Assembly: GCA_036252695.1 (NCBI GenBank)
Contig: GCA_036252695.1_4122.1
Source: a phage
DNA: 64,000 nt
Direction: 5' to 3' (one strand)
A model generated the notes under the pieces. It searched no databases. It was not told where the DNA came from and worked only from the letters and a program-made list of their open reading frames with translations. Shown here piece after piece: positions 57,904-58,863 of the stretch (position 1 is its first letter; every line of letters begins with the position of its first letter). Made by a program: the position numbers and the translations under genes.

Positions 57904-58863
57904 TTGCCCATCTTAACAATCAACAAAGGAGGCGTTTTGAAACAAGCGAAAAAAGCACTGAAAACTAAGACTACTTATGGTGTTCTAGTTTGCACAGTAC
58001 TTGTCGCTGCGATTGGATTTTATGGTTTTTCTCAAAATGATCGTGTATCATCATCGGACGAAAGTCAGGTACACAATTTAAAACCACAAGTTACGCAAAT
58101 TCAAAAGCAGGAATTACCAAAGGTAGAAATATCAAAGGATGTTCCACGCGGCGAGAAGCATTATACGGTTCAACCTGGTGATAGTTATTATTCTATTGCT
58201 AAAAAGTTTAAACCTAAAAATGTACAACTTGAAGAGTATGTTATTTTGTTGAAAAATATCAATTTAAATGCTACTCTTCATACTTCTCAGGGTATCTTTA
58301 TCCCAACAAAAGAGGATTTGAAGAACGTATTGTTACCAGATGTGACTGTACTGTTTGATTATAATGATCCAGAAATTGTCAATCACATCAAAGAAGCTGA
58401 AGGTTCAATTGAATTTCAGTCCAAGAACAAACGCCGTTTACTTGGTGGGAAAGTCGGAGTTCCTTTCCACAATTCTAAATTTCATCCCTACAAGGACATG
58501 AAAGGTAATTATACAATAGGTTATGGGCATTATTTGGGTAGAAAAGAATCTGATGCGATTAAGTACAGAAACGGTATTACCAAAGCTCAAGCCAATAAAC
58601 TTTTAATGCAAGATATGAAAAGAACATATAATGACTTTTTATTATTGATGCAGAAAAAAGAAGCAGTAAATCTGACCAAAGAACAACAACGTATTCTTTA
58701 TGAAATGTCCTATACAATGGGTGTTGATAAATTAGCAACGTTTAATAAACTTTGGAAAAGTGTGAAAAATGATAACCCTAAGAAATTTAAAAAAGAAATT
58801 ATGAATTCCTTATGGTATCGTCAAGTTACAAACCGAGCAGATTTGTTGTTAAGTTCACTCTAA
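57904..58863 (+). CDS. membrane-anchored LysM / lysozyme-like (T4 lysozyme-type) protein, candidate endolysin
   Basis: No in-frame ATG near the 5' end; likely TTG start after AAGGAGG. Basic N-terminus plus hydrophobic helix, LysM motif YTVQPGDSYYSIAKKF, C-terminal region resembling T4 lysozyme (NYTIGYGH, SLWYRQVTNRADLL). Confidence 0.6.
   Translation: MPILTINKGGVLKQAKKALKTKTTYGVLVCTVLVAAIGFYGFSQNDRVSSSDESQVHNLKPQVTQIQKQELPKVEISKDVPRGEKHYTVQPGDSYYSIAKKFKPKNVQLEEYVILLKNINLNATLHTSQGIFIPTKEDLKNVLLPDVTVLFDYNDPEIVNHIKEAEGSIEFQSKNKRRLLGGKVGVPFHNSKFHPYKDMKGNYTIGYGHYLGRKESDAIKYRNGITKAQANKLLMQDMKRTYNDFLLLMQKKEAVNLTKEQQRILYEMSYTMGVDKLATFNKLWKSVKNDNPKKFKKEIMNSLWYRQVTNRADLLLSSL

Follow-up and report, generated by a model that had tools for sequence, protein, structure and literature searches.

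We analysed a 64,000-nucleotide stretch of phage DNA (contig GCA_036252695.1_4122.1; hereafter the window) and found in it a gene, at 57937..58863 on the + strand, for a protein of 308 amino acids that carries a single hydrophobic helix near its N-terminus, a LysM domain and a C-terminal T4-lysozyme-like domain of the GH24 type with an invariant Glu/Asp/Thr triad. Translation starts at a TTG codon, the non-ATG start is conserved among the relatives of the gene, and the start is preceded by a conserved leader whose stems covary. It appears rather probable to us that the product is an active, exported and initially membrane-tethered muramidase that acts on the host wall. As an overall explanation we prefer, with modest confidence, a tethered LysM-GH24 muramidase that probably serves lysis and is synthesized at a low level because of its start codon and its leader. 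Coordinates given below are those of the window, and features lie on its + strand unless stated otherwise.

Comparison of the 3-kb stretch around the gene with known phages revealed 100% identity to Escherichia phages vB_EcoM_G17 and Sharanji and 96-99% identity to 121Q, SP27, phAPEC6 and other Asteriusvirus jumbo myoviruses (~350-370 kb). Since the window matches Asteriusvirus coliphages, its host is the Gram-negative E. coli; its G+C content is 33%. The window and G17 are not collinear over their full length, as indels shift the coordinates by a few hundred bases upstream of ~54 kb. The gene equals G17_00390, 121Q gp532 (99.7% identity at the protein level) and phAPEC6 gp293 (gp293c). The gene and its three-part architecture are already known, annotated and, since 2017, published: Buttimer et al. 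2017 (PMC5259590) described CBB_187, with its homologues GAP32 gp180, 121Q gp532 and a RaK2 protein, as a predicted endolysin composed of an N-terminal transmembrane domain (assigned by the authors' tools), a LysM-like wall-binding domain and a C-terminal lysozyme domain. The same authors pointed out its resemblance to signal-arrest-release (SAR) endolysins and stated, as data not shown, that induction of CBB_187 is toxic, inhibiting the growth of E. coli. The RaK2-like orthologues CBB_187, 121Q gp532, GAP32 gp180, RaK2 ORF029 and phAPEC6 gp293 belong to one family with the window gene and share its layout and genomic position, with no difference in the protein. What is new with respect to the 2017 description is the placement of the catalytic residues, the family-wide non-ATG start, an insertion between the catalytic Glu and Asp, and the conserved leader.

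We found 69 full-length homologues of the protein, and PHROG 15410 matches it over its full length (E 3e-173), indicating that the LysM-lysozyme reading frame is not a chance one. A HMMER search of 1.84 billion cluster representatives returned only 12 clusters at E <=1e-30 with most or all of the profile covered; beyond these, the scores fall steeply to matches with GH24 only or LysM only. The family is restricted to jumbo phages.

The mechanically called open reading frame (ORF) spans 57904-58863 on the + strand of the window. Between 57904 and ~58200 it contains just two in-frame start codons, TTG 57904 and TTG 57937, and the first in-frame ATG is codon 188 of the 308-residue reading, 3' of the codon for the catalytic Glu. 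A Shine-Dalgarno (SD) sequence, AAAGGAGG (57925-57932), lies 4 nt 5' of TTG 57937, and a strong SD is kept in all orthologous loci. Three independent annotations, those of G17_00390, 121Q gp532 and phAPEC6 gp293, place the start at the position equal to 57937, and the N-terminus common to the family, M-x-K-A-x-x-x-L-K-T in 58 homologues, begins exactly at this codon. Initiation at TTG 57904, which yields the 319-residue product of the gene caller (P0001), was rejected, because no SD precedes that codon, the real SD sits inside the extension, and in relatives the frame is closed a few codons 5' of the homologous start. A preliminary description of this DNA, made from the sequence alone, had noticed the lack of an ATG near the 5' end and a strong ribosome-binding site ahead of a TTG codon; both observations hold for TTG 57937, but the left coordinate given there, 57904, lies 33 nt upstream of the actual start.

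In 25 of 26 orthologous loci (L007, L009-L024, L058-L066), a strong SD precedes a TTG or GTG at the homologous start; the near-identical window, 121Q and phAPEC6 and several other close relatives are counted among them, and only RaK2 has ATG. The start of the CBB gene is TTG in the CBB authors' own table, and that of the XbC2 gene is TTG as well. Among the neighbouring annotated coding sequences of G17 and 121Q, non-ATG starts account for 7 of 117 (6%); the shared ancestry of the loci means that no meaningful P-value can be attached to the trait. Still, the start codon can be either TTG or GTG, and non-ATG initiation is kept in different genera whose proteins are ~50% identical. This is evidence that selection maintains the non-ATG start across the family and that it does not stem from faulty annotation. 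One deposited start deserves a separate remark: the annotated ATG of XaC1_255 (Xanthomonas phage XaC1, L065, locus 2513-2567) truncates the transmembrane helix, whereas the N-terminus typical of the family is recovered from a GTG that lies 54 nt further upstream and 4 nt behind a GGAGG, so that the deposited start is probably wrong.

The C-terminal part of the protein, residues 145-308 (58369..58860), is a GH24 T4-lysozyme-like domain according to Pfam, to sequence matches in the PDB and to the predicted fold. Pfam Phage_lysozyme (PF00959) matches it with 45.1 bits against a cut-off of 22.3 (E 1.5e-11) and matches 58 of 58 family members. AlphaFold2 predicts a T4-lysozyme fold for these residues at a predicted local distance difference test (pLDDT) score of ~90, and the top Foldseek matches are T4 lysozyme over its whole length, with target-normalised TM-scores of 0.61-0.69 and 20-26% identity among the first 24 matches. 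T4 lysozyme is the best PDB match by sequence as well as by fold.

HMMER aligns D187 (GAC, 58495..58497) and T193 (ACA, 58513..58515) directly with D20 and T26 of T4 lysozyme, but the alignment breaks before it reaches E11 because of a conserved insertion between Glu and Asp. The gap is bridged by two paralogues encoded by the phage, the soluble 162-residue gp586 and the C-terminal domain of the hub protein gp587, which are 36% and 29% identical to our protein over the catalytic domain: its IKEAEGS segment aligns with IKEFEGT and LKEYEGT of these paralogues (common motif IKExEG) and with RIDEGL of T4 lysozyme, where E11-G12 lie. Together with the fold match, this bridge identifies the catalytic Glu as E155 (GAA, 58399..58401). 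E155-G156, D187 and T193 do not vary among 58 homologues, the identity of which goes down to 46%, and equivalents of the three catalytic residues are also kept in 10 more distant cluster representatives. The preliminary description had recognized the T4-lysozyme-like region without being able to place its Glu; the GH24 alignment that it called for finds the full triad, with the Glu in the EAEG motif.

Owing to the insertion, the triad is spaced E-x31-D-x5-T instead of the canonical E-x8-D-x5-T. All distant representatives keep a Glu-Asp spacing of 31-32, followed by D-x5-T. The stretch of residues 157-181, SIEFQSKNKRRLLGGKVGVPFHNSK (58405..58479), contains 23 residues that are extra relative to T4 lysozyme and is among the best conserved parts of the protein; 13 of the 23 are common to the paralogues gp586 and gp587, and 10 (NKRRLLGGKV) are specific to the transmembrane-LysM-lysozyme family. 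LysUE1, a protein 96% similar to 121Q gp586, is muralytic in vitro (PMC12805682), which indicates that the 13 inserted residues held in common do not preclude activity and, since a paralogue with E-x21-D has an active close relative, that the canonical spacing is not essential for it. Judged from these sequence comparisons, the protein is likely to be an active GH24 muramidase. Both paralogues lack a transmembrane helix and a LysM domain and are located in the baseplate module, and the hub orthologue of phAPEC6, gp241, is a virion protein. In 121Q (L005, 3834-3860), a perfect T4-type late promoter, TATAAATA, lies ~20 nt before the start of gp586, and several structural genes near it carry ATAAATA-like motifs.

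N-terminal to the catalytic domain, the protein consists of four parts. A basic tail, residues 1-12, MKQAKKALKTKT (57937..57972), contains five Lys within residues 2-11 and should be cytoplasmic by the positive-inside rule, an established principle of membrane topology. It is followed by the sole hydrophobic stretch of the protein, the helix of residues 13-31, TYGVLVCTVLVAAIGFYGF (57973..58029; Kyte-Doolittle 1.86), which resembles a signal-anchor or SAR domain and whose AA-IGF-GF part is conserved in the family. Residues 32-72 (58030..58152) form a Ser/Gln/Lys/Pro-rich linker that is predicted to be disordered and is among the least conserved stretches. The LysM domain comprises residues 73-125 (58153..58311). 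Pfam LysM (PF01476) matches it with 22.5 bits against a cut-off of 20.9, the aligned profile positions being 1-17 only, and matches 35 of 58 family members (best E 1.3e-6). AlphaFold2 predicts the complete beta-alpha-alpha-beta fold at residues 75-121 (E75-77, H84-91, H98-108, E119-121) at pLDDT ~90; over the whole protein, pLDDT is below 50 for residues 1-72 and ~90 for residues 73-308. The basic N-terminus, the hydrophobic helix and the LysM motif had all been picked out in the earlier inspection of the sequence.

Some distant members of the family, among the 12 clusters of the HMMER search, depart from this layout. P0077, P0079 and P0081 possess an extra N-terminal domain of 80-95 residues before the transmembrane helix (those of P0079 and P0081 are 33% identical, E 2e-9), and P0078 has a classic short signal peptide in place of the transmembrane anchor; a search of viral contigs found no locus for the genomic context of P0079. 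Since three relatives carry a domain ahead of the helix and one an ordinary signal peptide, release from the membrane is not a conserved requirement. The trait that appears to be conserved is export of the LysM-GH24 part to the periplasm, and not one particular mechanism of release.

These data suggest the following mode of action. The host Sec system would export the muramidase, and the N-terminal helix would hold it, at least initially, at the inner membrane; the basic tail and the positive-inside rule argue for an N-in, C-out topology. The flexible linker of ~40 residues would allow the LysM module to reach and bind murein glycan strands, whereupon the T4-lysozyme-like domain would hydrolyse MurNAc-GlcNAc bonds by means of E155, D187 and T193. 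The most likely role is host lysis, with the protein serving as an exported endolysin of RaK2-like jumbo phages. Because an exported active muramidase is toxic, its synthesis would be kept low, on the one hand by the weak TTG or GTG start and on the other by the anti-SD segment of a folded leader, which would cover the ribosome-binding site.

In E. coli, initiation at TTG and GTG is several-fold weaker than at ATG, and a weak start behind a strong SD would fit selection for low output of a toxic product. The second element, the leader, is specific to this gene and lies in a 168-nt gap upstream of it (57835-57936 overall, core 57853-57903). An invariant 11-mer, GTAGAAAGTCC (57853..57863), occurs once in the window and is exact in 18 fetched loci, and its extended pattern occurs once each in 14 viral contigs, all of which also carry the lysozyme gene; the 11-mer keeps its place ~85-100 nt ahead of the gene even though the proteins share only ~50-60% identity. 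A hairpin follows (57867..57887), with the 5' arm GAGGCT (57867-57872), the loop TTTACAAAT and the 3' arm GGCCTC (57882-57887). Its 5' arm resembles an SD (GGAGGC), and its 3' arm is the start of an anti-SD segment, GGCCTCTTTGCCATCTTTGTGA (57882..57903), which is complementary either to this upstream SD-mimic or to the true SD and the start region. Of 20 leaders, 18 can form this stem perfectly over at least 5 bp, and its changes are compensatory, the arms being GAGGC/GCCTC in the window, GCGAC/GTCGC in leaders of the GAP32 type and GTGGC/GCCAC in RaK2. The hairpin loop, TTTGTGCAAA, is nearly invariant across leaders, and a second hairpin just upstream likewise covaries.

The pairing between the anti-SD segment and the SD was evaluated with RNAduplex, which gave -20.2 kcal/mol (z -3.5) for the window and -12 to -24 kcal/mol (z -1.2 to -6.7) across 14 of 14 leaders; the alternative upstream pairing reached -9 to -24 kcal/mol across the 14 of 14 leaders tested. 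The SD is predicted to be paired with a probability of 0.78 in the window; the median is 0.78 for 19 leaders and 0.54 for 115 neighbouring genes, 6 of which reach the value of the window (Mann-Whitney P 2e-5, the sequences not being independent). Thermodynamic prediction and the limited covariation suggest that the leader could work as a translational switch in which the SD-mimic and the SD compete for the anti-SD, and the TTG start and the conserved folded leader together probably keep production low. No Rfam family matches the leader, even in a permissive scan, and none reaches the gathering threshold in the whole 64-kb window. The leader element occurs in most RaK2-like lineages; L058 and L060, which are among the most divergent, are without it but keep TTG. 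Two other interpretations of the leader were rejected: a leader peptide, since ATG 57865 opens a 12-codon ORF but is absent from GAP32-type and L009-type leaders, and an intrinsic terminator, since the stem is followed by only 3 U in the window and by no U-run in GAP32-type leaders.

Upstream of the leader, two overlapping sigma-70-like promoter matches (57776..57820) were noted, TTTACA-17-TAAAAT (57776-57804) and TTGTAA-16-TATACT with a TG element (57793-57820). They are weak evidence of a promoter, the number of such matches in the region being no higher than in shuffled sequence; relatives carry TTGACA-17-TAAAAT or TATAAT at a comparable place. The ATAAATA motif reported as the late promoter of RaK2-like jumbo phages was not found in the lysozyme leader.

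An HPF/RaiA ribosome hibernation factor homologue (58881..59213; Pfam Ribosomal_S30AE 3.3e-10, TIGR00741 6e-09) begins 17 nt after the lysozyme stop codon, and the two genes are probably co-transcribed. A terminator-like hairpin (59222..59248, no strand assigned) closes the unit, and a terminator is annotated at the same place in G17. The pair recurs in Asteriusvirus, in Xanthomonas phages XaC1 and XbC2 and in several uncultured contigs, though not in RaK2. A wider gene order, namely RNA ligase or 2H phosphoesterase, lysozyme, (HPF), CCA-adding enzyme, Nudix and glutaredoxin, is conserved across Asteriusvirus, Alcyoneusvirus, Mimasvirus, Erwinia phages, XaC1, XbC2 and uncultured contigs. In the window, this block of RNA-, tRNA- and nucleotide-related genes around the lysozyme gene (57358-57768, 60813-61925, 62033-62434, 62436-62684 and 63264-63740) has as members a weak 2H phosphoesterase match, a CCA-adding enzyme, a Nudix hydrolase, a glutaredoxin and a macro-domain protein.

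A search of the ten neighbouring ORFs for holins and spanins against PHROG returned only PHROGs of unknown function and a weak HPF-type match downstream, and neither was found in the neighbouring annotation of 121Q, G17, RaK2, Hallingskeid, XaC1 and XbC2. According to the RaK2 paper, that phage has three lysozymes and lacks both a T holin and an RI antiholin. Several small membrane proteins are encoded nearby. That at 57011-57142 has 43 residues; its N-terminus is amphipathic, an Asn-Pro in it is conserved, and a transmembrane helix lies at its C-terminus. Erwinia, Xanthomonas and uncultured relatives encode a homologue of 46-47 residues two genes ahead of the lysozyme, and this 43-47-residue protein could be a candidate membrane partner of the lysozyme. 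Two further predicted membrane proteins match only PHROGs of unknown function, one of 74 residues with two hydrophobic helices and an acidic tail (55517-55741) and one of 61 residues with an N-terminal helix (59676-59861). A 146-residue ORF at 52334-52774 has the same length as G17_00405 and lies at the place expected for it; the annotations conflict here, G17_00405 being credited with a T4 rI.-1-like domain (a lysis-inhibition accessory) and its 121Q equivalent being labelled a starvation-inducible DNA-binding protein.

Several of these observations weigh against a tethered muramidase that lyses the host. No recognisable holin or spanin adjoins the gene, which sits in a conserved RNA/translation block and not in a lysis cassette, and the soluble gp586 with its canonical late promoter could be the real endolysin. 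As the linker probably reaches the murein, tethering alone would not keep the enzyme inactive, unlike in classical SAR endolysins. The three distant relatives with a domain before the helix and the one with an ordinary signal peptide show that membrane release is not required throughout the family, and the estimate of helix hydrophobicity given below was obtained with the Hessa 2005 scale applied without position weighting.

The helix could act as a strict SAR domain, a metastable segment that leaves the membrane when a holin or pinholin collapses the proton motive force and thereby releases and activates the enzyme, as earlier authors suggested for this family (PMC5259590). We compared it with the SAR domains of P1 Lyz (1XJT/1XJU) and phage 21 R (R21; 3HDE/3HDF), whose sequences were verified against the PDB, by scoring the best 19-residue windows with the additive Hessa 2005 scale, not weighted by position. 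The crude delta-G was +1.1 kcal/mol for the window protein, +0.5 for P1 Lyz and +0.8 for R21, and in the family it ranged from -3.0 to +5.1 kcal/mol with a median of -0.2. The hydrophobicity of the helix is marginal, as in SAR domains, but its composition is less SAR-like, since it is less rich in Gly and Ala: the G/A/S/T fraction is 0.37, compared with 0.53 in P1 Lyz and 0.63 in R21. The Gly and Ala residues that are present are conserved (A24, A25, G27 and G30 at 88-98%), and a Glu lies inside the helix of some orthologues, both of which speak for a SAR domain.

P1 Lyz and R21 likewise combine an N-terminal, weakly hydrophobic helix with a GH24 E/D/T triad; their helix is uncleaved, abuts the active site and takes part in regulation. 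In the window protein, by contrast, the helix ends at residue 31, and a 40-residue linker, the LysM domain and a second linker separate it from E155. With ~125 residues between the helix and the catalytic Glu, neither the disulfide cage of P1 nor the refolding of R21 can operate, and the sole Cys, C19, is not conserved, which leaves no conserved Cys for caging of the P1 type. No adjacent pinholin accompanies the gene, the ten neighbouring ORFs having no PHROG match to lysis functions, and the large cytoplasmic N-terminal domain of P0077, P0079 and P0081 cannot flip across the membrane. On this evidence, we consider a strict SAR mechanism possible but unlikely. The SAR-type endolysin proposed in the preliminary description is supported as far as an exported, non-virion muramidase is concerned, while strict SAR behaviour is not established, two hallmarks of that class, the helix next to the catalytic domain and the partner in a lysis cassette, being absent.

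An alternative of the same rather low standing is that the protein is a permanently anchored periplasmic enzyme that remodels murein before lysis, with soluble gp586 as the actual endolysin. In the course of the long jumbo-phage cycle, such an anchored enzyme might make the sacculus looser, alter its shape or ready it for lysis. Consistent with this, the gene has sigma-70-like promoter matches of its own and no late ATAAATA motif, whereas gp586 has TATAAATA upstream; it lies within a non-structural RNA/translation block and is paired with HPF across genera; the cytoplasmic N-terminal domain of some relatives is typical of stable bitopic proteins; and the low-expression design, with TTG and a sequestered SD, fits an enzyme that is tolerated during infection. 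However, the promoter matches are no commoner than in shuffled sequence, gp586, whose gene adjoins that of the hub lysozyme inside the baseplate module, may serve in the tail or in assembly, and the toxicity of CBB_187 is as expected of a lysis enzyme. A leader that lacks the late motif and whose sigma-70-like hexamers do not exceed shuffles keeps this early-remodelling alternative alive. We found no transcriptome of a RaK2-like phage in the literature; RNA-seq exists for PA5oct, but no orthologue of the gene is listed there.

An improbable third alternative is that the hydrophobic segment is a cleavable Sec signal peptide, cut after VAA (residues 23-25; AAA in relatives) to yield a free periplasmic LysM-lysozyme. 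Most members have such an A-x-A-like motif in the middle of the hydrophobic stretch, and P0078 shows that a signal peptide does occur in the family, but the residues that follow the site (IGFYGF) are hydrophobic and conserved and complete a 19-residue span, the n-region of 12 residues is unusually long, and the tools of the CBB authors assigned a transmembrane domain. Finally, the inactive or structural (virion) lysozyme domain considered in the preliminary description, for which the non-canonical Glu-Asp spacing of 31 instead of 8 speaks, is rejected as highly improbable: the triad is invariant across the whole family, part of the insertion is also found in a paralogue that has an active close relative, CBB_187 is toxic on induction, virion mass spectrometry of phAPEC6, which has two predicted lysozymes, detected only the hub gp241 and not gp293, CBB_187 is absent from the CBB virion protein table, a Pfam profile search found no gp5-like domains in the protein, and the label of the G17 protein is based on a domain match to T4 gp5, which is not evidence.

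Other phage murein hydrolases differ in several respects from the tethered LysM-GH24 muramidase that we favour. T4 lysozyme (gene e), which shares its fold and, directly or through the EG motif, its catalytic residues, is a cytoplasmic, single-domain and holin-dependent enzyme, whereas the window protein adds a predicted export signal, the LysM domain and the 23-residue insertion, and lacks the last ~12 residues of T4 lysozyme. The murein hydrolases phiKZ gp144 and EL gp188 carry PG_binding_1 and not LysM, belong to the lytic transglycosylase class and have no membrane helix. Both come from jumbo phages and bind peptidoglycan through an N-terminal module, a rare feature where the host is Gram-negative, and CBB_187 was compared with them on that account (PMC5259590).

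With respect to earlier work, our analysis firmly places the triad, spells out which hallmarks of SAR endolysins are present and which are absent, and adds the non-ATG start as a family trait and a conserved structured leader; of these, the conserved weak start and the leader specific to this gene deserve experimental work. A more far-reaching reading, which we regard as rather improbable, is that in RaK2-like phages lysis, or murein attack, is gated mainly at translation by the leader and not by a classical holin-endolysin cassette. The 11-mer and the hairpin loop would then be a putative binding site for a phage protein, an RNA or a ligand, and the muramidase, co-transcribed with the hibernation factor, may be accompanied by the 43-47-residue membrane protein. 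The conserved leader could be a new phage translational control element. If it does gate synthesis of the muramidase, this would explain how these jumbo phages, which according to the RaK2 paper have no recognisable T4-type holin genes, time their attack on the wall, and control by the leader would guide the expression of these so far toxic enzymes.

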